Origin: Myxococcota bacterium
GTDB lineage: Bacteria > Myxococcota_A > UBA796 > UBA2385
Reading direction: 5' to 3'
NCBI GenBank assembly: GCA_044344255.1
Contig: JBIJDH010000002.1
Span: forward strand, 32,001 to 96,000
Length of the DNA: 64,000 nucleotides
Part shown: piece by piece, positions 50,448 through 64,000 of the stretch
How positions within the stretch are numbered: the first letter of the stretch is position 1
Layout: each line of letters opens with the position of its first letter
Notes under the pieces: generated by a model
The model's input: only the letters and a program-made list of their open reading frames with translations
Told to the model about the DNA's origin: nothing
The model's database searches: none
Made by a program: the position numbers and the translations under genes

Positions 50448-51638
50448 CTAGTAGAAGGCGATGTCGTAGGGGGCGATGCCGGTGGTGATCCAGTCGGGGC
50501 CCGTGAGCGAGGAGCAGCTCTCCACGTCATAGACCATCACCCCGCCTTGCGAGTCGGGGTCGGCCCAGGAGGTGCGGGCGGAGATCCAGGCCTCTCCGTG
50601 GCTGTTCAAGCTCATCCCGCTGAGGAAGCTCGTGGTGCTCTCGGCCTCGACGAGGGTGTCCTCGGCCATGTCGTAGCACCAGACGGTGTAGACCGAGGCC
50701 GCGTCGCTCGTGAGCAGGAGGGCCTTGTCGCCGATGGCGACGGCGTCACCGATGTTCTCGCCGATGAGCTCCTCCGAGAGGAGGACCTCGGACTGGGTGC
50801 CGGCGTTGATGTCGAGGACGGAGATCCCACCGTCGAGGTCGATGTTGTAGTCGGCGTCGTAATAGACGCCGGTGCGGACGAGCAGCCGGCCCTCGTCGAT
50901 ACGGCTCAGCGAGGGGCTGGGGCCCACCTCCCAGGCATCGGTGACGGTCTGGCTCGTGCAGTCCACTCGGACGACCGTCCCGCCGTCGGCCAGCCAGCCG
51001 CCGTCCTGGGCGAGCTGCTGGAGGGCGACGTAGAGCGCGCCGCCGAGCTCGATCACGCTGCCGGTCTCGACGAAGCCGTCCCCGTCATCATAAGCGGCGA
51101 GATCGACCACCCCGGTGAGGACGCCGGTGCTGGGGTCGTAGACGCCGATGTGGTCGGAATTGTAGAGGCCGACGAAGAGCTTGTCGTCGCAGACCGCGGC
51201 GCCGAGCGGGTTCGAGCCGGAGCCGGTGGAGAACTCGAGCACGGGGGCTGCCCAGTCGCCGATGGTGTAGAGGCGGACGCTGTCGTATCCGTAGCCGTTG
51301 GCCTCGATCAGCCAGGGGCCGTCGATGTTGAGGTGGGGGTCGCTGGTGAGCGTGGCGAGGCCGTCGGTCACGGTCCAGTCGTCCAGGCTCACCGAGGAGA
51401 GGCCGCCCACCGAGTAGTCATCGGCCACGGTGGCGATGAGCGCGGTGCTGATGTCGGCGTCGGCGTCGGCGTCGGTGTCCCCGTCGGCGTCGGCGTCGCT
51501 GTCCCCGTCGGCATCGGCGTCGGTGTCGGTGTCGCTGTCCGCGTCGGTGTCGGCGTCCGTCTCACCGGACTCCTCGTCAGGGTCGACCTTGGGGGCGCAG
51601 GCGAGCAGGAGGAGGGCGAGGAGGGTCTTCGGGTTCAT
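50448..51638 (-). CDS. YncE/BtuG-like beta-propeller lipoprotein with Asp-Ala/Thr linker
   Basis: LLLAC, (DAD/DTD)n linker, EFSTG.GSNP, KLFV.LY and VG..P propeller motifs; follows the TonB receptor. Confidence 0.75.
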   Translation of the reverse strand: MNPKTLLALLLLACAPKVDPDEESGETDADTDADSDTDTDADADGDSDADADGDTDADADADISTALIATVADDYSVGGLSSVSLDDWTVTDGLATLTSDPHLNIDGPWLIEANGYGYDSVRLYTIGDWAAPVLEFSTGSGSNPLGAAVCDDKLFVGLYNSDHIGVYDPSTGVLTGVVDLAAYDDGDGFVETGSVIELGGALYVALQQLAQDGGWLADGGTVVRVDCTSQTVTDAWEVGPSPSLSRIDEGRLLVRTGVYYDADYNIDLDGGISVLDINAGTQSEVLLSEELIGENIGDAVAIGDKALLLTSDAASVYTVWCYDMAEDTLVEAESTTSFLSGMSLNSHGEAWISARTSWADPDSQGGVMVYDVESCSSLTGPDWITTGIAPYDIAFY

Positions 51639-51701
51639 GTCTTCTCCAGGATTGAAGCGGATGACGATGGCGATACACGCAGCATGCGAGCAGGGCGCGC
51701 G

Positions 51702-53750
51702 TCAGGACTGCCAGCGGAGCGTGAAGAGGAGGGTGCGGCCAGGCAGGGGGTAGCCGGCGAAGTCGGTGATAGGCTGGACGGCCCGCGCGCCCGACGGTCG
51801 GAGGGGATCCCGAGGGACAACCTCGACGAATCGATCGAGGAGGTTGAGCCCCGCGAGCTCCATCGAGGGCCAGGCGGCGGAAGGCTGGAGGCGGAGGAAG
51901 GCGCCGTGGATCGAGCGTGGGGCCGAGCGGAACCAGTTGGTGGCGTCCCAGTAGTTCCCGTCGGTGAAGCTCCAGGTGTGGCCGATCCGGGCTCGCTCCT
52001 CCCAGTGCAGGCTGGTGGCCTGTCCGAGCTCCCAGGTGGGGACACGCGGGAGCTGATTGTTGGAGACGGCAGGGATGGGCACCAGGTTTCGGGAGAGGGT
52101 GCGGGTGAGGTTGCTTTGACTGTCCAGGTGACCGCCGAGGTCGAGGCTCACGGCCAGCTCGAGACCCTGCACCCAGGCCTCCCCCACATTGACGGGGATC
52201 AGCACCCGCTGGGCGTTCTGCATCCAGGTGATGAGGTCTTCGGAGGCGCTCCAGTAGTGGGAGAGGTCGAGGCTCCCGCTCAGGTGTCGGCCCGAGTGGA
52301 CGAGGCGCCCGCCCACGTCCCACTGCCAACCGCGCTCGGGCTTCAGCGTCGTGTTCCCGGCCATGGCGCCGCGGTCGCCAAAGAGCTCGGTGAGATCGGG
52401 CGGACGGATGGTGTGGCCGCCGTTGGCCTTGAGCGCGAGGGCCGGCGTCGGGCGGTAGAGGACGCCCAGGCGGGGGTTGAGGGCGAGGAGGTCGGTGGTG
52501 GGCTCGGTCTGGGCGGCGTCGTACTCAAAGACGGGCTCGTCGAGGCGGAGCGCGTGCCAGGCCTGGGCCTGGACCACCGGGGAGAGGGTCCAGCGGTCGC
52601 GGTTGAAGCGGAAGGTGCTGGCCAGCGAGGCGCTCCCGCCGAGGCGGCTGCGCGGCAGGGCCTCCTCTTCCTGCACGAGGTCGGTGGCGATATACCGCTC
52701 CTGATGAACAGAGAGCGTGAGGGAGGGCGACACCCAGGAGGCTGGTGTCCAGAGGGCGTGCGCGAGGCCGCCGCGGTCGCGCGTGTCGCCGCGGATCTGC
52801 TGGCCGCCCGAGCCGAGCTCGCCGGAGAGATCGTCGAAGAGCTCGCGGCGATCGAGCTGCCAGAGGCGGAGGGTCAGCGCGCTCGCCTCGCCGCAGCGCT
52901 CCAGGCTGAAGACCCCGAGGTTGCGCCGCGTGTCGAGGCTGGCCTCGAGGGCGGGCAGGTGAACCGGTCCCGGCAGGCCTTCGTCGCGAGAGAGCCAGGC
53001 GTCGAGGAGGGTGAGGCGGAGCGCGCCGTAGCGGGCGCGGAGGCGGGCCGTCGCGGCGAGCTGGTCCTTCTCGTTGTTCAAGCGAGGAGCGACGGCGTCA
53101 TCGGCGAGGTTGTAGAGGGTGCCGTTGTCGTCAAAGGCCTCATAGTCCGCGGCGGTCGTGAAGAGCTCGGCGGTGAGGAGACCGTCGAGCTCCCAAGGGC
53201 CAAGCTCGCCCGTCGGCGTCGTGAAGGCGTTGAATCGGCCAGTGTGGTAGCTGCCGCCGCTCACCGCGACGGTGGACGGCCCGGGCACCTCTGCGCTCAC
53301 GAGGTTGACCACGCCCCCCATCGGCGCCGCCGAGAATTCCGGCGGGGCGTTCCCTCGATAGAGCTCGACCCGGGAGAAGGCCTGAAGCGGCAATTCGGAG
53401 AGGTTGACCGTGTCGCTCCCGTCGGGGTTGAGCGGCACGCCGTCGAGGAAGACCGCCACTTGGCGCAACGTCGAGCCGCGGATGCTCACCGCCGAGAAGG
53501 AGCCGAGGCCGCCGAGCTCCACCACGGTGGTGCCCGAGGCGGAGTCGACCACGGAGGCGACGTCCGCCCCGCTGGAGAGGCGCGTGTCTATCGGGATGAC
53601 CGTCACGCTCGCGGGCGTGAGGCTCGGGTCAGGCCCGCGGAGGCCGACGACGACGATGTCACCCACGCCCTCGACAAGCGAGGGATCGGCGGGTGGAGGG
53701 TCTGCGGCGGCGGCAAAGGTGAGGGACAAGGGCAGGAGCAGCGGCGTCAA
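51702..53750 (-). CDS. TonB-dependent receptor, probable cobalamin receptor (BtuB-like)
   Basis: Plug motifs SIRGS..QV.VFLDGVPLN and VELYRG; R.P...EL, GN..LKPE, PLPGR...LRW; TTG start after GGAGG; downstream of a B12 riboswitch. Confidence 0.9.
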   Translation of the reverse strand: MTPLLLPLSLTFAAAADPPPADPSLVEGVGDIVVVGLRGPDPSLTPASVTVIPIDTRLSSGADVASVVDSASGTTVVELGGLGSFSAVSIRGSTLRQVAVFLDGVPLNPDGSDTVNLSELPLQAFSRVELYRGNAPPEFSAAPMGGVVNLVSAEVPGPSTVAVSGGSYHTGRFNAFTTPTGELGPWELDGLLTAELFTTAADYEAFDDNGTLYNLADDAVAPRLNNEKDQLAATARLRARYGALRLTLLDAWLSRDEGLPGPVHLPALEASLDTRRNLGVFSLERCGEASALTLRLWQLDRRELFDDLSGELGSGGQQIRGDTRDRGGLAHALWTPASWVSPSLTLSVHQERYIATDLVQEEEALPRSRLGGSASLASTFRFNRDRWTLSPVVQAQAWHALRLDEPVFEYDAAQTEPTTDLLALNPRLGVLYRPTPALALKANGGHTIRPPDLTELFGDRGAMAGNTTLKPERGWQWDVGGRLVHSGRHLSGSLDLSHYWSASEDLITWMQNAQRVLIPVNVGEAWVQGLELAVSLDLGGHLDSQSNLTRTLSRNLVPIPAVSNNQLPRVPTWELGQATSLHWEERARIGHTWSFTDGNYWDATNWFRSAPRSIHGAFLRLQPSAAWPSMELAGLNLLDRFVEVVPRDPLRPSGARAVQPITDFAGYPLPGRTLLFTLRWQS

Positions 53751-53833
53751 TGCCAGCCTCCGCCGGGGCTCAAATCGTGGCCCGGCAGGGCGACACGACC
53801 TGTTCTTCAACCCCGAAGAACGATGCGTTGCTG

Positions 53834-54042
53834 CTCGAAGGCCGGTCTCCTGGCTCCTGGATCATCCGCTTCACCACGCCTTCCCGGTGTGACCCAGTGG
53901 CAATTGTGGTGAGCGTCCCCAGTTACAGTGGCGGGGGCCGCGCCGGACTCGGAGAGCGAATGACCCTTTCGGACCATCCCACCACCCCACCGGCTTCCCG
54001 TTTCACCTCCGCCGCCGAGAGGACGGCGCAGGCACCTTCGAG
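53834..54042 (-). promoter_or_regulatory. Cobalamin (B12) riboswitch
   Basis: Minus strand: AGGTGC...GAAACGGGAAGCCGGTG...TCCGGCGCGGCCCCCGCCACTGTAA...GCCACTGGG..CCGGGAAGG...GAGCCAGGAGACCGGCC, closed by CTCGAAGG/CCTTCGAG. Confidence 0.95.
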
Positions 54043-54120
54043 GATCTTCTATGAAAAGAACGAGCCGAGTGACTAATTCAGATCGCGGCGCCTGTCAAGC
54101 GAGGCCGTGGGCAGCCCCCC

Positions 54121-55287
54121 TCACCGGTCGGTGGGGGGGGAGCCGTCGGCGGGCAGGGCGGGGAGCGTGGGGTGGCTCCAGGTCGCCGCGGCGGCGGGCC
54201 GGCCAAAGTAGTAGCCCTGTGCGCAGGCGAAGCCGAGCTGTCGACAGATCTCGGCCTCCTCCGGGCGCTCGACGCCCTCGGCCAACGGTACGATCCCAAA
54301 GTCGAGCACCATCTTGACCAGGGTGCTGACCATCTGGTGCTTCTGCGCGCTCGCGAGGTGGATGTTCCGGATGAGGCTGATGTCGAATTTGAGGAACTGC
54401 GGCGGCGCTTCGACCAGCTCGATGAGCCGGGCCTGCCCGGCGCCGAAGTCATCGTAGGCAAGAGATACGTCGATGTCGCTCAGACGCTCGGCCAGGGCGC
54501 GCATCTGGGGAGGATCGGTGACCGCGGCCTCGTGGATCTCGAGCACCAGCTGCAGCTTCGAGTTCATGGAGCGGAGCTCTGCGAGCTCAACGAGGAGGTC
54601 CGGGTTGTGGGTCTCGATGGGGCGCGAGTTGAGGAAGAGGAGGAGCGGGCGCTCCGGGAGCGTCGCGGCCTCCTCCACCGCTCGGCGGCGAAGCAGCCGG
54701 CTCAGCTCCTCCTCGGCCTCGAAGCCCGCGGCGATGGAGAAGAGGCGGATCGGGCTGGCGGGCATCCCCGGGGCATCGCTGCGGCCCAGGGCCTCGTAGC
54801 CCATGCGGGTGACCGCAGCGTCAAGGCGCACGATCGGCTGGAAGACCACGCGGACCGCGCTCGTGCTGAGCATGTCGCGGAAGGCGCGCGGGTTGTTGAA
54901 GAAGTGATTCGAGAGGCCCGAGGAGTGGATCGAGGTGTTGAGCGTCGGGTGCCGCAGCTCGCCGAAAGACTCGTGGCCGAGGCGGAATTCGGCGGAGGCG
55001 AAGTGGATCACGTCGCCTTCGCTGAGGGGCGCCAAGCTCGAGATTCGGACCGAATTGACGAACGTGCCGTTGGTCGAGCCGAGATCCCGCAGGTGCAAGC
55101 AGCCGCGCTCGTGGACCAGCTCGGCGTGGGTCCATGACACGCCGGTCGAGCGGATCGTGAGCATGAGATCGGGGGAGCGGCCGACGCGGAACGGAAAGTT
55201 GAGGATCGGCACGCGCATGAGCTGCTTGTTCCCTGGGAAGAATCCCTCCAGGAACCAGCCTACGATCGGGGTTTGTAGAGTTGACAT
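54121..55287 (-). CDS. FHA domain + EAL domain c-di-GMP phosphodiesterase
   Basis: VGR, VS..HA, DLGSTNGTFVN (FHA); FQPI, YEALGR, LEIHE, DDFGAG, LKFD, AEGVE, QGYYF (EAL). Confidence 0.92.
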   Translation of the reverse strand: MSTLQTPIVGWFLEGFFPGNKQLMRVPILNFPFRVGRSPDLMLTIRSTGVSWTHAELVHERGCLHLRDLGSTNGTFVNSVRISSLAPLSEGDVIHFASAEFRLGHESFGELRHPTLNTSIHSSGLSNHFFNNPRAFRDMLSTSAVRVVFQPIVRLDAAVTRMGYEALGRSDAPGMPASPIRLFSIAAGFEAEEELSRLLRRRAVEEAATLPERPLLLFLNSRPIETHNPDLLVELAELRSMNSKLQLVLEIHEAAVTDPPQMRALAERLSDIDVSLAYDDFGAGQARLIELVEAPPQFLKFDISLIRNIHLASAQKHQMVSTLVKMVLDFGIVPLAEGVERPEEAEICRQLGFACAQGYYFGRPAAAATWSHPTLPALPADGSPPTDR

Positions 55288-55380
55288 GGTAGTCCGTCAG
55301 GCGCCCCTCGGGGACCCGCTGCAGGGAGGGCGCGGGGCGATGGGAGCAGGATGTCCCGAAACCGGCTACAATTCAAGCCG

Positions 55381-57477
55381 ATGAAGTCGACCGGCCCGAC
55401 GGATGCGCTCGCCGCAGCCCCCGCCTCCGCGGCTCCGGCCGCCTTGGAGCCTGTTGTCGCCACCGGCGTGCACCCCGCGGCACCTCCCATGGAGGGCGCT
55501 GAGGAGACCGATCAGACCATCATGAAGGAGGACCTCGGCGCCTCCTTGGAGGACGCCCCGGCGGACGGGAGCCTCGGCCCCGTGGAGCTCCCCGGAGACG
55601 CCCTGCTCGGCACGGTGCTCGACGGCAAATTCCGGCTTGAGAAGCCGCTCGGTCGGGGTGGAGCGGGTCGGGTCTACCTCGGCCGGCAGCTCTCGCTCGG
55701 CCGTGTGGTCGCGGTCAAGGTCATGCGCCCGGAGCTCGATCCGGAGGGTGAGCAGCGCTTCGGCGAGCGCTTCTTCCGGGAGGCCTCGCTCGCGGGCGCC
55801 CTGAACCACCCCAACGTGGTCACGGTGCACGACTTCGGGCGGACGAAGGAGGGGCTCTGCTACATCGTGATGGAGCTCCTGGGTGGGGTGTCCCTCAAAG
55901 ACCTGCTGCGCCTCGGGCCCATCCCGGCTGAGCGGGCCGTCGTCATCTTCGAGCAGATCGTGAGGGGCCTCCGACACGCCCACAAGGCCGGCCTCGTGCA
56001 TCGAGACGTCAAGCCGGGCAACGTCCAGGTGCTCCCCGGTGATGACGGGCGCGACTTCGTGAAGCTGCTCGACTTTGGGCTGGTGAAAGGAGACGACGAG
56101 GAGTCTGGGATCACCCAGCACGGCTCCTTCATCGGCACGCCGCAGTACGCCGCCCCCGAGCAGGTCAAGGGGGAGGCCGCGTCCGCGCGCTCCGACCTCT
56201 ACTCGACGGGCGTGATGTTCTACCGGGCCGTCACCGGGAAGCTGCCCTTCGCCTTCGACAACCCGATGGCGATCGCGCTCGCTCACGTCAAGGAGCCCTA
56301 CCCGCCGATGGCGGAGCGCGCCCCGGATGTGCCTGTCCCGCACGACATCGAGCTCATCGTACGGCGCTGCATGGAGAAGGAGCCGGTTCAGCGCTATCTC
56401 GACGCCGACGCCCTCCTCAACGACATCATCGCCGCCCGACGGAACCTCTTCCCCGAGATGCCGAGCGTGGTGGGCACCGCGGCGATGGTGGCGGCCTGGA
56501 CCGGCGCGGCCGGCGCGGGGAACGGGGACGCGGGCGCGGCGAGCGGCGCGGCCCCGAGGTCACTCGGCCCTTCCTCGGGGGAGCCCCGGACGCTGCCGAT
56601 CCCGATGCCGATCCCGATGCCGGCGAACGGCGCCGCACCGGCGGTTCGGACGGGCCGGCGGCTCGGCGGACTCGTCGCTGTGGTGCTCGGGGTGGGCCTC
56701 CTCTTCGGGGTCGGCTGCCTCGGAGGCGGCCTGTGGCTGGGGCCCTGGAGCGTTGACTTCCTGGACCGCGGCGCGGCTGGGCCCGAGGCGGCGGACGGGG
56801 CGCCCCGACCGGCCGACGCTGCGGACGCCGATCTGATCAACGCCCCCCCGAACAACGCCCCCGCCGAGCCGGAGGCCCCCGCCATGCGGACGGTCTCGCT
56901 GACGGTGCAGAGCGCGCCCGCGGGAGCCGAGGTCCGGCTGAGCGGGGCGCTCCTGGGCACCACGCCGCTCGTCACGGATCTGCCGATCCCCGCCCAGGAG
57001 CAGGGCGCCCACCGGCCGATTGAGCTCCGCCTCTCCGGCTACGAGGCCCGGGTGGTGCTGGTAGACGTCTCGGGGTCGGAGGCGCTGCTGGACACGCGTC
57101 TATCCGCGATCGCCCGCGCCGCCGAGCCCGCTGTGGCGAGCGGCGGTGCCCGCGCCGCGGCGAACGAACCCGAGGTCGCTCCCGAGGAACAGGGGTCGAA
57201 GGCCAGCGTCGGCGCGACCCCGGCGCCAGCACCTGCCTCGCCGGGCGGGGCGGTGATCGCCGACGGTGTTCGTTTCACGAGCGCGGAGGCCGCGGAGGCC
57301 GTCGCCTTCGCCAATGGCGCCAGCAAGGAGGCCCTCCTCGGGGCCGGTATCGCCCCCGCGCAGGCCAACGTCGTGCTGCGGTCGCGTCCCTTCGCGGACG
57401 TGTCGGCCTTCGCCGCGACGCCGCAGATCGGCGAGAAGACGGTCGCCGCCGTGCTGCGAGCGGTGAAGTCTCCGTAG
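55381..57477 (+). CDS. Membrane Ser/Thr protein kinase with PEGA and helix-hairpin-helix-like C-terminal domains
   Basis: LGRGGAG.VY, VAVK, HRDVKPGN, DFG, GTPQYAAPEQ; TM; VQSAPAGAEV..G..LGTTPL; N.AS..L..AGI....RPF......IGEKT; start uncertain. Confidence 0.9.
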   Translation: MKSTGPTDALAAAPASAAPAALEPVVATGVHPAAPPMEGAEETDQTIMKEDLGASLEDAPADGSLGPVELPGDALLGTVLDGKFRLEKPLGRGGAGRVYLGRQLSLGRVVAVKVMRPELDPEGEQRFGERFFREASLAGALNHPNVVTVHDFGRTKEGLCYIVMELLGGVSLKDLLRLGPIPAERAVVIFEQIVRGLRHAHKAGLVHRDVKPGNVQVLPGDDGRDFVKLLDFGLVKGDDEESGITQHGSFIGTPQYAAPEQVKGEAASARSDLYSTGVMFYRAVTGKLPFAFDNPMAIALAHVKEPYPPMAERAPDVPVPHDIELIVRRCMEKEPVQRYLDADALLNDIIAARRNLFPEMPSVVGTAAMVAAWTGAAGAGNGDAGAASGAAPRSLGPSSGEPRTLPIPMPIPMPANGAAPAVRTGRRLGGLVAVVLGVGLLFGVGCLGGGLWLGPWSVDFLDRGAAGPEAADGAPRPADAADADLINAPPNNAPAEPEAPAMRTVSLTVQSAPAGAEVRLSGALLGTTPLVTDLPIPAQEQGAHRPIELRLSGYEARVVLVDVSGSEALLDTRLSAIARAAEPAVASGGARAAANEPEVAPEEQGSKASVGATPAPAPASPGGAVIADGVRFTSAEAAEAVAFANGASKEALLGAGIAPAQANVVLRSRPFADVSAFAATPQIGEKTVAAVLRAVKSP

Positions 57478-58584: not shown

Positions 58585-60423
58585 TCAGGACGCGGTCAGG
58601 ATCACGACGGTCTGACCGGCTTCGTCGGCGCAGCGGACCTTCTGGTCTCGCTCGGGGACGCAGACGAGGTGGGTGTCTTGCTTCAGCTCCAGCGAGCCCT
58701 CCACCTTGGCGCGGGCGGCGACCTTCGCGCTCAGGGCGTAGACCCCTGTGGGAAGGGCGGCGTCACCATTCGGGCTGCCGCTCAGGACCCGCTTGCCAGC
58801 GGCGTCTTCAAGGCGGATCCACTGAACGGTGTCGTCAGGTGAGCGGAGCTCGACCTTCACGGTGCCCTCGAGGGCGGCGTCGCCTCCGGCTGGTGTGCGC
58901 TCGGCCGCGCTCGAGGTCGACTCGGCGCTGGCGCGGGGGGCTGGAGCGCCCGCGGCGACCACGTCGGGGGCGGCCGGCCCGCGACTCCAGAGATACCAAG
59001 CTCCGCCTCCCACCGACGCCAGCGCGATCACGCCGAAGAAGGCGATGAACACAACGGCGGCGCCGATGATGAGGCCTCGCTTGGACGGGGCCGGGGCGGC
59101 CTCCGCATCGAAGGGAGGGGGCTGCGTCCGCCGGGAGGGTTCGCCTCGCCGGCCCGCTGGCGCGGAGGGCGAGGGGCTGCCCCGGAGGGCTCGGGAATTG
59201 GACGGCAGGGGGTCCTCGGCCTTGGCCGGCATCGCCGACGGCGAGGTGCGGGCGTCGGCGACCGGACCGCGAGCCACGGGAGCGTCGGGGCGGGCCTCCA
59301 GCTTTCGGGCCGGCGTGGCCGGTCGGGAGACCTGCACATCCGAGGCGCTCGGATCGGGCAGGGCCGCGCGGCCGGATGTGGCGATGGGAGGAGATGGCTG
59401 AGTGGCCACCTGCTGGGGGTCAGCGGTCTTCTCTGCGGTGTTTATCGCGATGAACAGGCGCGATCCGGAGAGCGCGCCGTCGGTGCCCTTGCCATAGACA
59501 TCCTCCGCCACCCGCGCGACGGTCGTGGTGGCGAAAGCGTCGAGGGACGGACCGGCGGACTGCTCCGAGAAGGCACGCAAAAGCTGGATGATCTGCTGGG
59601 CGTTCAGGCGCAGCTCGGGTTCGGCGGCGCACATCCGCGCGAGGGTCTGGCGGAGGGACTGGTCCCAGTCCTTGTTCGGCAGGCCGAGGCTGTCCAGGCG
59701 GGAGATGACGTCACCGAGCGCGGAGTCGTGCTCAGACTTGTCGAGCGGAAGGAGCGGGAGCAGCTCGCCGCGCAGCATCTCGATGAGGACGAGGCCGAGC
59801 GCGTAGATGTCGGAGGGGTGCTCCCCGCGGTCGCCGACGCGGCGCTCGGGGGACATGTACTTCATGCTGCCGAAGCGCAGGACGCCGGTGCGAGCGAGGC
59901 GGGCCTCATGGTTGAACCGGGCGGTGCCGAAGTCGAGGACCTTCACCTCGCCTTCGATGCTGACCATGATGTTCGACGGCTTGATGTCGCGGTGAACGAC
60001 GTTCAAGGGCTCGCTCATGCCGTACGGCACCTTGAAGCAGGCGGCCTCGAGGGCGGCGGCGGCGTCGTGGGCGATCTTGTACGCGGCCCGAGGGGGGATC
60101 CGCTCACCCCGCGCGGCGAGCTTCTCGATGAGCTGCTTGAGGTCGACCCCGTCCACAAACTCCATGATGATCGCGGGCTGGCCGTCGATCTCGGACATCG
60201 CCTCCACGCGAAGGATGTTGCGGTGGTGCAGGCGGGCCAGGAGGCGAGCCTCGTCGCGGGTGCGGTCGAGCAGGTCGTTGGACTCCGACCACTGGTCCTT
60301 CAAGACCTTGACGGCCACAATGCGCGACAGGCCGTCTGCGCCCGAGGCCTCGGCCAGGTAGACCCGCGCGAAGGTGCCGGCGCTGCGCTCCTGGAGCAGC
60401 GTGAGCTCGAACTGTCGGGTCAT
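58585..60423 (-). CDS. Membrane Ser/Thr protein kinase
   Basis: AGTFARVY, VAVKVLK, HRDIKPSN, DFG, YMSPE; Pro-rich linker, TM, small ectodomain; ATG at 60423. Confidence 0.9.
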   Translation of the reverse strand: MTRQFELTLLQERSAGTFARVYLAEASGADGLSRIVAVKVLKDQWSESNDLLDRTRDEARLLARLHHRNILRVEAMSEIDGQPAIIMEFVDGVDLKQLIEKLAARGERIPPRAAYKIAHDAAAALEAACFKVPYGMSEPLNVVHRDIKPSNIMVSIEGEVKVLDFGTARFNHEARLARTGVLRFGSMKYMSPERRVGDRGEHPSDIYALGLVLIEMLRGELLPLLPLDKSEHDSALGDVISRLDSLGLPNKDWDQSLRQTLARMCAAEPELRLNAQQIIQLLRAFSEQSAGPSLDAFATTTVARVAEDVYGKGTDGALSGSRLFIAINTAEKTADPQQVATQPSPPIATSGRAALPDPSASDVQVSRPATPARKLEARPDAPVARGPVADARTSPSAMPAKAEDPLPSNSRALRGSPSPSAPAGRRGEPSRRTQPPPFDAEAAPAPSKRGLIIGAAVVFIAFFGVIALASVGGGAWYLWSRGPAAPDVVAAGAPAPRASAESTSSAAERTPAGGDAALEGTVKVELRSPDDTVQWIRLEDAAGKRVLSGSPNGDAALPTGVYALSAKVAARAKVEGSLELKQDTHLVCVPERDQKVRCADEAGQTVVILTAS

Positions 60424-60840
60424 GGGAGCTGCACTCGTCGACGGGGCATGACTTCGGCTCGTTCGGGCCGCCCCGCAGGCGATGGACCCCGGGCGAGAAG
60501 AGGACGGAATCGGGAGAAGGACGGAGAGCCGGACGGAGAGGGAAGTGAATGATGGCCCGGATGGAGGGCTGGACCCAGGCGAAGGCGGTGTCGCGAGCTT
60601 ATCACGCCGGACCCGCCCCTGTCCGCCGGTGCACTTCCTGCGGACCCCGCAGAGGGCGCTTGCACAACGGACATGGGATGTGGTTAAACCCCCCCGACGG
60701 TCCGTCGGACCGCGGAGTGCCTCCGAAATGCCCCTCTCCTCGGCGAGCGCCTGGCCTTCAGGTTTCGCAGTGTGTAAGGCCGTCCAGGATGGCTGCGTTG
60801 GGTGTTCGAAGGGTCCCTTGGCGCTTGAGTGGAGGTCTCC

Positions 60841-61941
60841 GTGAAGCAAGGAGTGAAGGGCGAAGCCCGAGCCAGAGGGGGCGCAGCTCCCGGCCTGCTT
60901 CGGATGGCGCCCGTCGGATGTGTGGCGCTGCTCGCGATGTTCGCCCTCAGCGGCTGCAGCATCGTCGACAAGGTGCTCAAGCTCGGCGACAAAGCGTCTG
61001 CCGCCGCGGAGGTCAAGCTCAAGGCGGGTGATCTCCCTGGCGCGAGCACCGACTACGCCAAGGCTGCAAAGGACCACCCCTCGACGGTCTCGGCGGCGAC
61101 CGGCGCCGCGTATACGGCGCTGCTCCAAGGAGACACCGCGGGGGCTGACAAGATCCTGGCGGCGGCCGAGGCTGGCGCAGGGCCGCTCGTGGGCGAGATC
61201 AAGCTGCGACGAGCCTTGGTCGCGCTCAAGGCCGGTGACCTCGACTCCATGCGCACCCACGCGGAGGCCAGCGGGCTGCCCCTCGGCAAGCTGCTCGCCG
61301 CCGAGGTCGCGCTCGCGGACGGTGAGCGAGAAGAGGCGGCGGGGCTCCTCACTGCGGTGGAGGGTACGTCGGGTACGGTCGGCGACACTGCCAAGGCCTA
61401 CCTCGCGCTCATCCAGGATCCGGACCCTCTGGTCGCGGGCCTCTCCGAGGCGCAGGCCCTCTGGGCCCTCGGTGAGCGGAAGGTGGCGGTGAAGTCGGCG
61501 GTGGAGCTCGTCACCAACCTCCCCGACACCCGTACGGACCGCGAAGAGCAGCTCCTCGTCTGGGCCGGTCGCGCCGCCTCGGTGGGCGAGACCGACATCG
61601 CCCGTGGGCTGCTCGACGCGGCGATCTTTCCCCCGGAAGGGCAGGCCTGGCGCAAGGTCGCGACCCTCGGCATCATCGCCTGCGCCGAGGGCAAGGGCGC
61701 GGAGTGCCTCACTCAGCTCGACGCGCTCGAAGGGAGCGCTCCTTCTGACGGCCTCGCCGACGCCCGCGCCACCGCGGCCTTCCTGATCGCGGGCACCGAT
61801 CCGGAAACCTCCAAGAAGCTTGCGGGTTCGTACATCTCGAACGCTGCGGCCCGCGCCCTCGTCGAGGCGGGCGACCGGGATGCGGCCCTCGGCTCCTCCC
61901 CGGGCGGCGTGTACGCCACCTACCTGAAGTCCGGAGGCTGA
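60841..61941 (+). CDS. Helical-repeat (TPR-like) lipoprotein
   Basis: Lipobox ALSGC; Ala/Leu-rich repeats with GD...A motifs; GTG after GGAGG. Confidence 0.7.
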   Translation: MKQGVKGEARARGGAAPGLLRMAPVGCVALLAMFALSGCSIVDKVLKLGDKASAAAEVKLKAGDLPGASTDYAKAAKDHPSTVSAATGAAYTALLQGDTAGADKILAAAEAGAGPLVGEIKLRRALVALKAGDLDSMRTHAEASGLPLGKLLAAEVALADGEREEAAGLLTAVEGTSGTVGDTAKAYLALIQDPDPLVAGLSEAQALWALGERKVAVKSAVELVTNLPDTRTDREEQLLVWAGRAASVGETDIARGLLDAAIFPPEGQAWRKVATLGIIACAEGKGAECLTQLDALEGSAPSDGLADARATAAFLIAGTDPETSKKLAGSYISNAAARALVEAGDRDAALGSSPGGVYATYLKSGG

Positions 61942-61944
61942 ACG

Positions 61945-62412
61945 ATGCGTCTCGCCCATACCCTGCTCCTCGGAGCCCTCGTCCTCGCGCCTGCGCTCGT
62001 CCCCGCCACCGCATCGGCGAAGAAGGGTTCAGAGGGAGATCCCGAGGGAGTGCCGGTCAAGGTGAAGGTGCTGGACGCAGACGGGAACCCGATCCCCACC
62101 GCCGTGGTCCGGCACCCCGACGAGGCCGATCGTCACCGGGTCAACTCTCTGACCGGGGAGTGGTTCAACTCGGTGCTGTACCTGCCGGACGGCAGTGAGA
62201 TGATCTTCACTCCCGGCATGCAGCTTCGCCTGGAGATCTCCGCGCCAGGCTACATGACCAAGATCATCCAGTACGACATCCGCAAGCGGAAGAACAACAT
62301 TGAGGTCGCCCTCGACAAGCTCGAAATCGAAGAGCAGTCGATCGAGGAGCCCACCATACAGTTCGGCCGAGACAAGCCCCGCGATGACGGTGGCTCCGGG
62401 CCGGCCAACTGA
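61945..62412 (+). CDS. Secreted protein with carboxypeptidase-regulatory-like (transthyretin-fold) domain
   Basis: Signal ..ATASA; VKVLDADGNPIP.A.V; ISAPGY. Confidence 0.7.
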   Translation: MRLAHTLLLGALVLAPALVPATASAKKGSEGDPEGVPVKVKVLDADGNPIPTAVVRHPDEADRHRVNSLTGEWFNSVLYLPDGSEMIFTPGMQLRLEISAPGYMTKIIQYDIRKRKNNIEVALDKLEIEEQSIEEPTIQFGRDKPRDDGGSGPAN

Positions 62413-62425
62413 ACAGGAGTCGCGC

Positions 62426-63796
62426 GTGAAGCAAGGACTGGTCTTCCTGGCGGTGTCGGGAGCCTTGGGGGTGGTCGGGGTCGCGTTGGCCGCGGGCTGG
62501 TCGGACTTCGGCCCGGCCTTCCCTGGCTTGCCCTGCAATGACGGCTGGGCGGCCTGCCTCGTGGAGGGGCAGGTGGTGAGCCCGGACATGGTCGTCGACT
62601 CCGCGGGGAGGCCACAGGTCTCCAACCAGCGGGTTGGCTTCTTTGACCTCCAGCCGTTGCCGGCCTTCAGCCCGTTCAGCACCCTGTCCCCCTACGCGGG
62701 CAGCGCCGACGCCGCGTTGGCGGACGCGGCGCCCCCTGCGGGGGCCCCGGCGGAGGCCGAGCCCGCGGAGGCCGAGCCCGCAGAGGCCGAGCCAGAAGAC
62801 CGAGCGGAGAGGGAGGAGGGATCGCGACGGGAGCCGCCGGTCGCGGCCCGCGCCGATCGGGAGGAGCGGGAAGATCGCGCTCCCACGGCGGTCGCCACCA
62901 CCCGCACCCCGCCGCCGGAGACGACGGCCGCGCGAACGCCTCCGCCGGCTACGGCGCCGCCCCCGACCACCGTGAGCGCGCCGCCGTCCAACACCCAGAC
63001 CGCGGCGCGGACTACGCCTCCGCCGACCACCGCGCCACCGCCGACCACGGTCGTGGCGACGCAGCCGCCGCCGGTGACAAAGACCCAGTCGGCCGCCGCG
63101 ACCGCTCCTCCGCCGACGACCGCCACGCAGGCGGCCAGCGCACCGGTAGCGGTCGCAGCGGCCAGCCGCCCCCCACCGCCTGCGAACGCGGCGCCGCAGG
63201 ATGACTCCTGTGACGATCTCGTCGCGCTCGAGGCCCCGGCCATGATGGGGCAGCTCGGCGTGGGGCGTCGAAAGTGCTTGGAGGGGGTGCTCGGGGCGGG
63301 CGGTGCCCAGACCCAGCGGAACAAGGTCAGCCGGGTGCTCATCTTTGACGCCGAGGCCCGCGGGGATCGGTCGGACTGGGAGCGCTTGATGAAGCGCCAC
63401 CTCGAAGACATCGATCGCTCTGATCCGAACCTCTGCATGAAGTATGCGATCCACCTGTCTCGCGGCGGTGTCGCGCGGGCCAATGGCGTGATCCGGTGGG
63501 CCGACTACGCGCTCGAGAACAAGCAGCAGTGGTCCGGTCCGTCGTACACCAAGAACGTCTACAGCCTCTACAAGCTGCGGGCCCAGGGTGCGCATAAGCT
63601 GTGGGAGAGCGCCGAGGCCAAGTTCGTCGCGGAGCGCAATGACGAGAACGAGGCGGCCGCCGCGAAATATCGCGGGGTCGCGAAGGACTACGCCCGGGAG
63701 TGGCTGGACTACGCCCGTGCGTCCAGCAGCGACATCAAAGATCCTCTCGCCCTCTGCGTGTCCGCGTCCGGAAACAAGGAATTCTGCGACGGATGA
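62426..63796 (+). CDS. Exported hypothetical protein with Pro/Thr-rich linker and helical Cys-containing C-terminal domain
   Basis: N-terminal hydrophobic segment, AEPAE repeats, TTAPPP linker. Confidence 0.7.
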   Translation: MKQGLVFLAVSGALGVVGVALAAGWSDFGPAFPGLPCNDGWAACLVEGQVVSPDMVVDSAGRPQVSNQRVGFFDLQPLPAFSPFSTLSPYAGSADAALADAAPPAGAPAEAEPAEAEPAEAEPEDRAEREEGSRREPPVAARADREEREDRAPTAVATTRTPPPETTAARTPPPATAPPPTTVSAPPSNTQTAARTTPPPTTAPPPTTVVATQPPPVTKTQSAAATAPPPTTATQAASAPVAVAAASRPPPPANAAPQDDSCDDLVALEAPAMMGQLGVGRRKCLEGVLGAGGAQTQRNKVSRVLIFDAEARGDRSDWERLMKRHLEDIDRSDPNLCMKYAIHLSRGGVARANGVIRWADYALENKQQWSGPSYTKNVYSLYKLRAQGAHKLWESAEAKFVAERNDENEAAAAKYRGVAKDYAREWLDYARASSSDIKDPLALCVSASGNKEFCDG

Positions 63797-64000
63797 GCAA
63801 CTGGCGCCGGTATTCGACCTTCCTCTTCGGGTGTCTGTCGATCGTCTCCTGTGCGGGCGAGCCGGAGGTGGCGGCGGTCCCCTCTGCGAGCTCCTCGCTC
63901 ATCTCAACGGAGCTCCTCGCCGCCACGTGGCCCGTCCGGATGTCGGAGGACCAGGTTCGCTTACCCTTCGAGCAGGATCCGGCTTGGGGGCAGGTGTTTC
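63793..64000 (+). CDS. Partial lipoprotein (3'-truncated by window)
   Basis: ATGA overlap; MSNWRRYSTFLFGCLSIVSCAGEPE; open to window end. Confidence 0.6.
   Translation, partial: MSNWRRYSTFLFGCLSIVSCAGEPEVAAVPSASSSLISTELLAATWPVRMSEDQVRLPFEQDPAWGQVF

Follow-up and report, generated by a model that had tools for sequence, protein, structure and literature searches.

What does a bacterial Ser/Thr receptor kinase detect when its C-terminus, on the far side of a membrane helix, resembles the DNA-binding protein ComEA? The question is raised by an open reading frame (ORF) encoding 698 residues (positions 55381–57477, + strand) in a window of 64 000 nucleotides from a Myxococcota bacterium, the window being the whole stretch of DNA that was analysed. 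The product combines a kinase domain, a transmembrane (TM) segment, a PEGA-like domain and a C-terminal pair of helix–hairpin–helix (HhH) motifs. An earlier note on this DNA had proposed that periplasmic or extracellular DNA could cluster and activate the kinase. The protein represents a real, conserved and apparently undescribed type of receptor kinase that is a member neither of PknB/PrkC nor of YabT or ComEA. Its best reading, at a probability of roughly 0.42, is that of a sensor on a tether in the periplasm that would respond to a phosphate-rich polymer and be activated by clustering; DNA-triggered clustering of the kinase is a live hypothesis.

Few outside ligands are known for bacterial receptor kinases, and YabT, the DNA-activated kinase that was found described, is without an extracellular domain. 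If true, a receptor for periplasmic DNA would connect Ser/Thr signalling with the uptake of DNA, the lysis of prey or the entry of phages and would amount to a bacterial pattern-recognition receptor for nucleic acid. Whatever its ligand, the domain is a conserved kinase sensor overlooked by automatic annotation, as it scored under the Pfam cut-off in all kinase-positive relatives scanned. A kinase with an HhH ectodomain was not found in the literature searched (titles and abstracts, with supplements and subscription papers outside the scope). The terms HhH, ComEA and PEGA were not found in PMC1262709 and PMC11032199, and the accessible part of PMC3581485 mentions HhH and kinases in separate proteins only.

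Domain architecture of the kinase

The ORF was read from the ATG at 55381; a further in-frame ATG lies upstream at 55351. Contigs from another DNA run span almost the whole gene, and neither insertions nor deletions were listed for them; at least three quarters of its sampled words were present in 16 lake-water or freshwater DNA runs, four of which are possibly the source. The host genome (8.18 Mb, 71% GC, 95% complete) can be inferred to belong to an uncultured order of Myxococcota.

All features of the protein are encoded on the + strand. A Hanks-type Ser/Thr kinase domain spans residues 85–340 (55633–56400; Pkinase E = 9e-46, 156.8 bits against a Pfam cut-off of 31.7), with VAVK, HRD, DFG and GTPxY all intact. 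A single TM segment, in which a hydropathy scan (value 2.35) placed one hydrophobic helix at residues 428–446, covers residues 428–455 approximately (56662–56745); it is Gly-rich, about 28 residues long and preceded by an Arg cluster, with three Lys/Arg residues before it and none after. From this charge bias only, the protein would be oriented N-in/C-out, with the kinase in the cytoplasm and the HhH domain in the periplasm. The ectodomain comprises about 240 residues and its juxtamembrane region is rich in Ala, Gly and Pro. It contains a predicted β-sandwich of seven strands at residues 502–573 (56884–57099), modelled with a predicted local distance difference test (pLDDT) score of >90, and a disordered linker rich in Ala, Pro and Glu (57100–57243; pLDDT of about 50). 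Fixed packing of the sandwich against the HhH domain was not predicted by a model of the two together (predicted template-modelling score 0.43). The last 77 residues, encoded by 57244–57474, are the peptide flagged earlier, and the order of kinase, TM helix, PEGA-like part and HhH C-terminus was recovered as the earlier note had given it.

The PEGA assignment itself is a borderline one. PF08308 matched residues 505–562 with E = 4e-4 and 20.6 bits, slightly below its cut-off of 20.8, which relatives exceed. The domain is optional: it was matched by Pfam in 10 of 49 Pkinase-positive relatives (98 of the 149 sequence matches described below were scanned). Foldseek returned weak transthyretin-like and CnaB matches to the sandwich, none at E ≤ 0.001.

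Fold of the C-terminal domain

Taken alone, the C-terminus is a poor match to known profiles. HHH_3 (PF12836) reached E = 0.012 and 16.1 bits, under its gathering cut-off of 27; the best PDB sequence matches were the ComEA entries 8dss (E = 0.18) and 2duy (E = 0.37), and no NCBIfam model, including the ComEA models TIGR01259 and TIGR00426, was matched at E = 0.05. At the family level, the two best of 177,635 sequences for a profile built from ten family sequences (A2) were 2duy, with E = 6.5e-4, and 8dss, with E = 7.7e-4, and HHH_3 was matched at E ≤ 0.01 by 13 of the 44 members of a second alignment (A1). At E ≤ 0.001 it was found in 2 of 49 kinase-positive relatives, the best with 26.9 bits and all under the Pfam cut-off of 27. 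An AlphaFold model of the domain (pLDDT 95) contained two HhH units in one compact (HhH)2 domain. The likeness is beyond chance at the level of the family because the A2 profile, the A1 matches and the model agree in it, and a ComEA-related (HhH)2 fold is supported, the fold itself being that of a predicted model. The check by hidden Markov model suggested earlier left the single domain under the HHH_3 cut-off, the family profile reached ComEA structures, and the predicted structure has the HhH fold whose absence the earlier note had named as a refutation.

The two HhH motifs are preceded by a conserved extension, a D-G-V-x-F β-hairpin plus helix (residues 625–646; 57253–57318), which is common to repeats of Myxococcota lipoproteins and was not seen in the aligned canonical ComEA-type repeats. 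Likeness of fold only (18–23% identity) links the domain to the N-terminal (HhH)2 of TEFM (5OL9), the HhH of KIF22 (2EDU) and the N-terminal region of Fft3 (7XWY), which are intracellular eukaryotic proteins, unlike the kinase-linked domain with its predicted extracytoplasmic position.

Distribution of the kinase family

A kinase sequence stands ahead of the domain copy in 52 of 149 non-self matches to the C-terminal domain. Visual sorting of the remaining matches gave 33 proteins that are lipoprotein-like or large and secreted, with 71 repeats, and nine canonical ComEA-type repeat proteins, with 23 repeats; 55 others, mostly fragments, were kept outside the class counts. Together with the product of 55381–57477 the fusions give a set of 53 kinase-linked domains, which underlies the counts below. 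The hydropathy scan placed a TM helix ahead of the domain in 52 of the 53, followed by a tether of 18–178 residues (median 97). Lys/Arg were more numerous on the kinase side of the helix in 37, equal in 11 and fewer in five (mean 1.9 versus 0.6); this bias and the kinship with lipoproteins support the extracytoplasmic placement of the domain that had been proposed.

After nine partial or degenerate kinases had been dropped from the motif count and the kinase tree, the catalytic motifs were found to be kept in 42–43 of 43 full-length relatives. These and the product of 55381–57477 form one kinase clade (FastTree support 0.876) with none of 35 same-genome paralogues inside it, and just one of the 99 kinase-like ORFs of the genome carries the domain. 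An order-wide search at E ≤ 1e-14 gave matches in 57 of 110 genomes, covering all seven families, with a single match in 54; no strong match was obtained in the other 53 genomes searched. The survey of such architectures called for in the earlier note covered loci from 50 relatives within the order; in 39 of them, again from all seven families, a single ORF encodes both an active-type kinase and the domain. The other 11 comprised four cut by a contig end, one split by a frameshift, two pseudokinase fusions, three of lipoprotein type and one with a second, kinase-less copy only. Outside the order, 15 of 257 genomes sampled from the phylum matched (best 61 bits), and a kinase was not found in the ORF or its 1.5 kb flanks in any of the nine loci opened; with just 18 candidates scored per genome and a large share of incomplete genomes, these results mean 'not found' and not 'absent'.

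Some members depart from the common layout. Pseudokinases without HRD and DFG carry a TM helix, a short tether and the same C-terminal domain (P0058, P0072, P0094, P0120, L077 and L078). Kinase-less membrane-anchored proteins join a linker to a kinase-type HhH domain with the basic residue of hairpin 2 kept (L076:2012-2797, L079:2173-3276, P0147 and P0150), a layout resembling that of Gram-positive ComEA. One kinase, P0027, bears two tandem copies of the domain. At L029:7959-9570 (G034) the kinase and HhH parts lie in different frames, whereas another genome from that genus has the TM helix and domain in a shared frame; the break would be an assembly error or a recent event.

Hairpin residues and phosphate binding

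Residues of ComEA were mapped onto the domain through the 8dss alignment; the numbering offset was inferred, and K166, K195 and T196 fall on the right letters. In a docked model of Geobacillus stearothermophilus ComEA these three residues contact DNA phosphates, K195 and T196 through hydrogen bonds (PMC9747964, in the part available). The residue counts that follow come from orthologues, which are not independent of one another.

The second HhH (57400–57468) retains G684-x-K686-T687, equivalent to G193, K195 and T196 of ComEA. The K195 site holds Lys/Arg in 47 of the 53 kinase-linked domains and the T196 site Thr/Ser in all 53. Among 71 lipoprotein repeats, which share the fold, just one has Lys/Arg at the K195 site, so that the lysine of hairpin 2 is not needed for folding. 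K686 is conserved to the degree of a core residue (entropy 1.05 bits versus 2.5–3.2 at adjacent variable sites, at a mean identity of 38.5%). In hairpin 1, Lys/Arg was found at the K62 site (+4) in 32 of 53; in 23 sister lipoprotein repeats it does not figure among the residues most often seen at +4, be it in hairpin 1 or hairpin 2. A caveat is that Arg occupies this hairpin-1 site in 20 of 48 other lipoprotein repeats as well. Single HhH motifs are able to grip DNA backbones in repair enzymes. Hairpin 2 is probably a conserved phosphate-binding face, to judge from this pattern of residues, and the binding mode of ComEA is probably not kept.

Several findings weigh against DNA binding, most of them in the first HhH (57325–57384). 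This motif is degenerate, with G-I-A in place of G-I-G, and all 53 domains have it shortened by one residue, the N-to-G spacing being 11 versus 12 in 23 of 23 canonical repeats. The key lysine of hairpin 1 (K166, K164 or K63 according to species) is replaced in all (Lys/Arg in 0 of 53); Ala658, Ala660 and Gln661 of the present product, the last at the key-lysine site, leave it with neither hairpin-1 lysine and no basic residue there. The second Gly of hairpin 1 is kept in 2 of 53, with Tyr in 24. The weight of the lysine is apparent from mutants described in the available parts of two papers: K166A of G. stearothermophilus ComEA did not shift DNA, K164A of Bacillus subtilis ComEA cost >2 logs of transformation and K193A about fourfold (PMC9747964), and in Vibrio cholerae K63A lowered transformation about 250-fold while K62A/K63A was dead (PMC3879209). 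In the same V. cholerae series G60V and G60E were non-transformable. On the other side of the balance, G60A, the state of the present product (Ala658), was harmless, and of the 23 canonical-type repeats in the comparison just 7 have the K63-type lysine, the site being variable among HHH_3 proteins. Genomic context also gave no support: over 16 loci (15 relatives and the 55381–57477 locus, with crude gene calls) no recurring DNA-handling gene was seen, nor any pointer to uptake, predation or phage.

The ComEA/HhH pattern recognized earlier therefore holds for fold and kinship but fails in hairpin 1, and of the features of a sequence-independent DNA binder the hairpin-2 G-x-K-T is kept while the key lysine of hairpin 1 is absent. 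The step from kinship with ComEA to such a binder is not secure. The suggested sources of the DNA (uptake, prey lysis and phage injection) are likewise not indicated by the 16 loci.

Origin of the C-terminal domain

In a tree of the domain (84 columns) the kinase-linked domains form one group (Shimodaira–Hasegawa approximate likelihood-ratio support 83) nested among the lipoprotein repeats. Its sister (support 86) consists of 23 repeats, 17 of which have the same one-residue-shorter hairpin 1, and the canonical ComEA-type repeats stand apart (support 99). The tree, with modest support, suggests a Myxococcota lipoprotein repeat as the source of the domain, and not a direct capture of ComEA. The D-G-V-x-F lipoproteins, partly annotated as HHH_3, share the extended domain, and those repeats that stand next to the kinase-linked group mostly share the short hairpin 1; the lipoproteins are secreted, mostly contain at least two repeats and lack a kinase as well as, with the one exception counted above, the basic residue of hairpin 2. 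Among them, lipoproteins and large secreted Myxococcota proteins with tandem repeats (P0024, P0025, P0035, P0043, P0078, P0141, L065-L074 and L080-L083) are without the hairpin-2 lysine and are fused to P-domain, APP1 phosphatase, FG-GAP and Ig-like domains.

Comparison with known systems

ComEA (8DSS, 8DFK and 2DUY) and the kinase-linked domain have in common a compact two-HhH structure, an N-x-A start, an R-P-F loop and the G-x-K-T of hairpin 2, and Gram-positive ComEA likewise places its HhH outside the membrane behind a TM helix and linker. The kinase-linked domain differs in its fusion to a cytoplasmic kinase, in its additional β-hairpin and helix and in its short hairpin 1 without the second Gly or the key Lys. 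Identity with ComEA was rejected: the protein is a kinase fusion and not a stand-alone exported protein, and the hairpin-1 motif, spacing and key lysine are all missing.

PASTA kinases (PknB, PrkC and Stk1) share the layout of kinase, TM helix and extracytoplasmic sensor. The best NCBIfam match of the kinase domain was the PASTA kinase model NF033483 (E = 6e-86), which ends at residue 359; membership was rejected on its score of 289.8 bits against a cut-off of 450 and on the lack of any PASTA repeat found.

YabT of B. subtilis shares the membrane anchor and Hanks kinase, and its autophosphorylation is raised by non-specific DNA binding (PMC3708118 and PMC6333020, both in part), which is what is hypothesized for the present product. 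YabT binds DNA through a basic juxtamembrane stretch by the kinase, whereas the present product would sense its ligand with a folded HhH domain on the far side of the membrane. Assignment to the YabT type was rejected on the length of the ectodomain and the Ala/Gly/Pro-rich juxtamembrane region.

Ligand and activation

In the favoured reading, a receptor kinase present in single copy would bear its (HhH)2 domain at the end of a flexible tether, of which PEGA may or may not be a part. The domain, taken from lipoprotein repeats, carries basic residues at +4 of both hairpins that its closest lipoprotein relatives lack. Its periplasmic ligand would be a polymer with repeating phosphates, bound mainly by hairpin 2 and more weakly than by ComEA. 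Where several receptors sit on a single polymer, their kinase domains would come close enough for trans-autophosphorylation; ligand-induced dimerization is the general activation model for Hanks receptor kinases (PMC6213207, in the part available). Clustering may not be the sole route of activation because YabT trans-phosphorylates without DNA, which only enhances the reaction (PMC3708118, likewise in part). DNA would be the leading candidate ligand, followed by RNA, polyphosphate or phosphorylated envelope polymers, although that it is DNA itself is doubtful. Equally tentative, and on balance unlikely, is the wider proposal of an order-wide receptor whose ComEA-like domain, put to a new use, would recognize periplasmic DNA of foreign or prey origin and whose signal would cross the inner membrane, with the pseudokinase and kinase-less forms as co-receptors or decoys. 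The lipoprotein repeats without the hairpin-2 lysine offer a built-in negative control, and the domain is conveniently small at 77 residues.

Four other explanations rank below a polymer sensor, in the order given here. The closest to it in likelihood, and a quite possible one, is that the domain is a protein-interaction module whose partner is a protein of the periplasm or outer membrane, or a second copy of the domain in the manner of SAM/HhH-like association, and that the kinase reports this partner. PsbU and GspK, which belong to the same fold family, have known roles in protein assemblies. The uniform loss of the key ComEA lysine fits such a role, and the conserved Tyr/Arg of hairpin 1 together with Thr680 could make a protein-binding patch. 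The two closest paralogous kinases of the genome (C52:421140-422783 and C18:33000-34649) have no HhH and no ligand-binding fold, their disordered tethers ending in short, aromatic-bearing peptides, and the pseudokinases and kinase-less membrane proteins that carry the domain in some relatives could be co-receptors. A protein partner leaves unexplained, however, why a lysine occupies the phosphate-contact site of ComEA hairpin 2 in the kinase lineage only, and no lipoprotein-repeat protein that could pair like with like was found in the 95%-complete genome.

With a considerably smaller chance, the domain may do no more than anchor or localize the kinase at a polymer of the envelope, either in peptidoglycan or on the inner face of the outer membrane, activation coming from elsewhere. 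The long, flexible tether of variable length would suit an anchor, as would the tandem occurrence of related repeats before varied domains in secreted lipoproteins, where they look like anchoring modules; yet the tether shrinks to 18 residues in some members, and cell-wall binding by this fold was not found in the literature searched. An inverted topology, in which a cytoplasmic HhH would let the kinase sense the cell's own DNA as YabT does, is improbable: the hydrophobic segment is Gly-rich and long, and Lys/Arg is higher after the helix in 5 of 53, but there is a single TM helix, the basic residues lie mostly on the kinase side, and the PEGA-like sandwich and lipoprotein kinship point outside. 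A functionless relic of fusion, least probable of all, would account for the degenerate hairpin 1 and the 53 of 110 genomes without a strong match but not for the exact C-terminal position kept in all seven families, the near-invariant sites at 38.5% mean identity or the duplication of the domain in one member.

Genomic neighbourhood

A recurrent block of genes lies a few genes downstream of the kinase gene, often past another kinase gene that runs the other way (60829–64000 and beyond, + strand). It consists of genes for an unannotated lipoprotein-like protein with weak TPR, a 155-residue carboxypeptidase-regulatory-like protein, a Pro-rich protein of 485 residues, a 465-residue protein and a family-5 solute-binding protein; NCBIfam gave no match for the first four. 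Each gene was found in 5–7 of the 16 loci and at least two of them in seven. The block looks like a trace of common descent of the region and does not point to a ligand. The other kinase here is a TM Ser/Thr kinase (58585–60423, − strand) convergent with an epimerase-like gene, and a kinase occupies the same place in several relatives.

FHA-domain genes stand upstream of the kinase gene in several of the 16 loci. Here the gene for an FHA–EAL protein (54121–55287, − strand) is divergent from it; its product could read phosphothreonine, but the FHA–EAL gene was not seen again in the loci of the relatives.

Elsewhere, the genome encodes its own canonical two-domain ComEA with a signal peptide (G000:C36:228537-229094), which adjoins the gene for a secreted metallo-β-lactamase-fold protein with a C-terminal HhH (C36:229313-230458), the pair corresponding to L094:8535-10450 on the − strand; a ComEC Competence domain lies at C18:428080. 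This ComEA keeps the lysine of hairpin 1 and lacks that of hairpin 2, the mirror image of the kinase-linked domain. Farther upstream in the window, a gene for a TonB-dependent receptor is followed by a lipoprotein-like gene (50448–53810, − strand), with a possible leader RNA region near 53900–54050.
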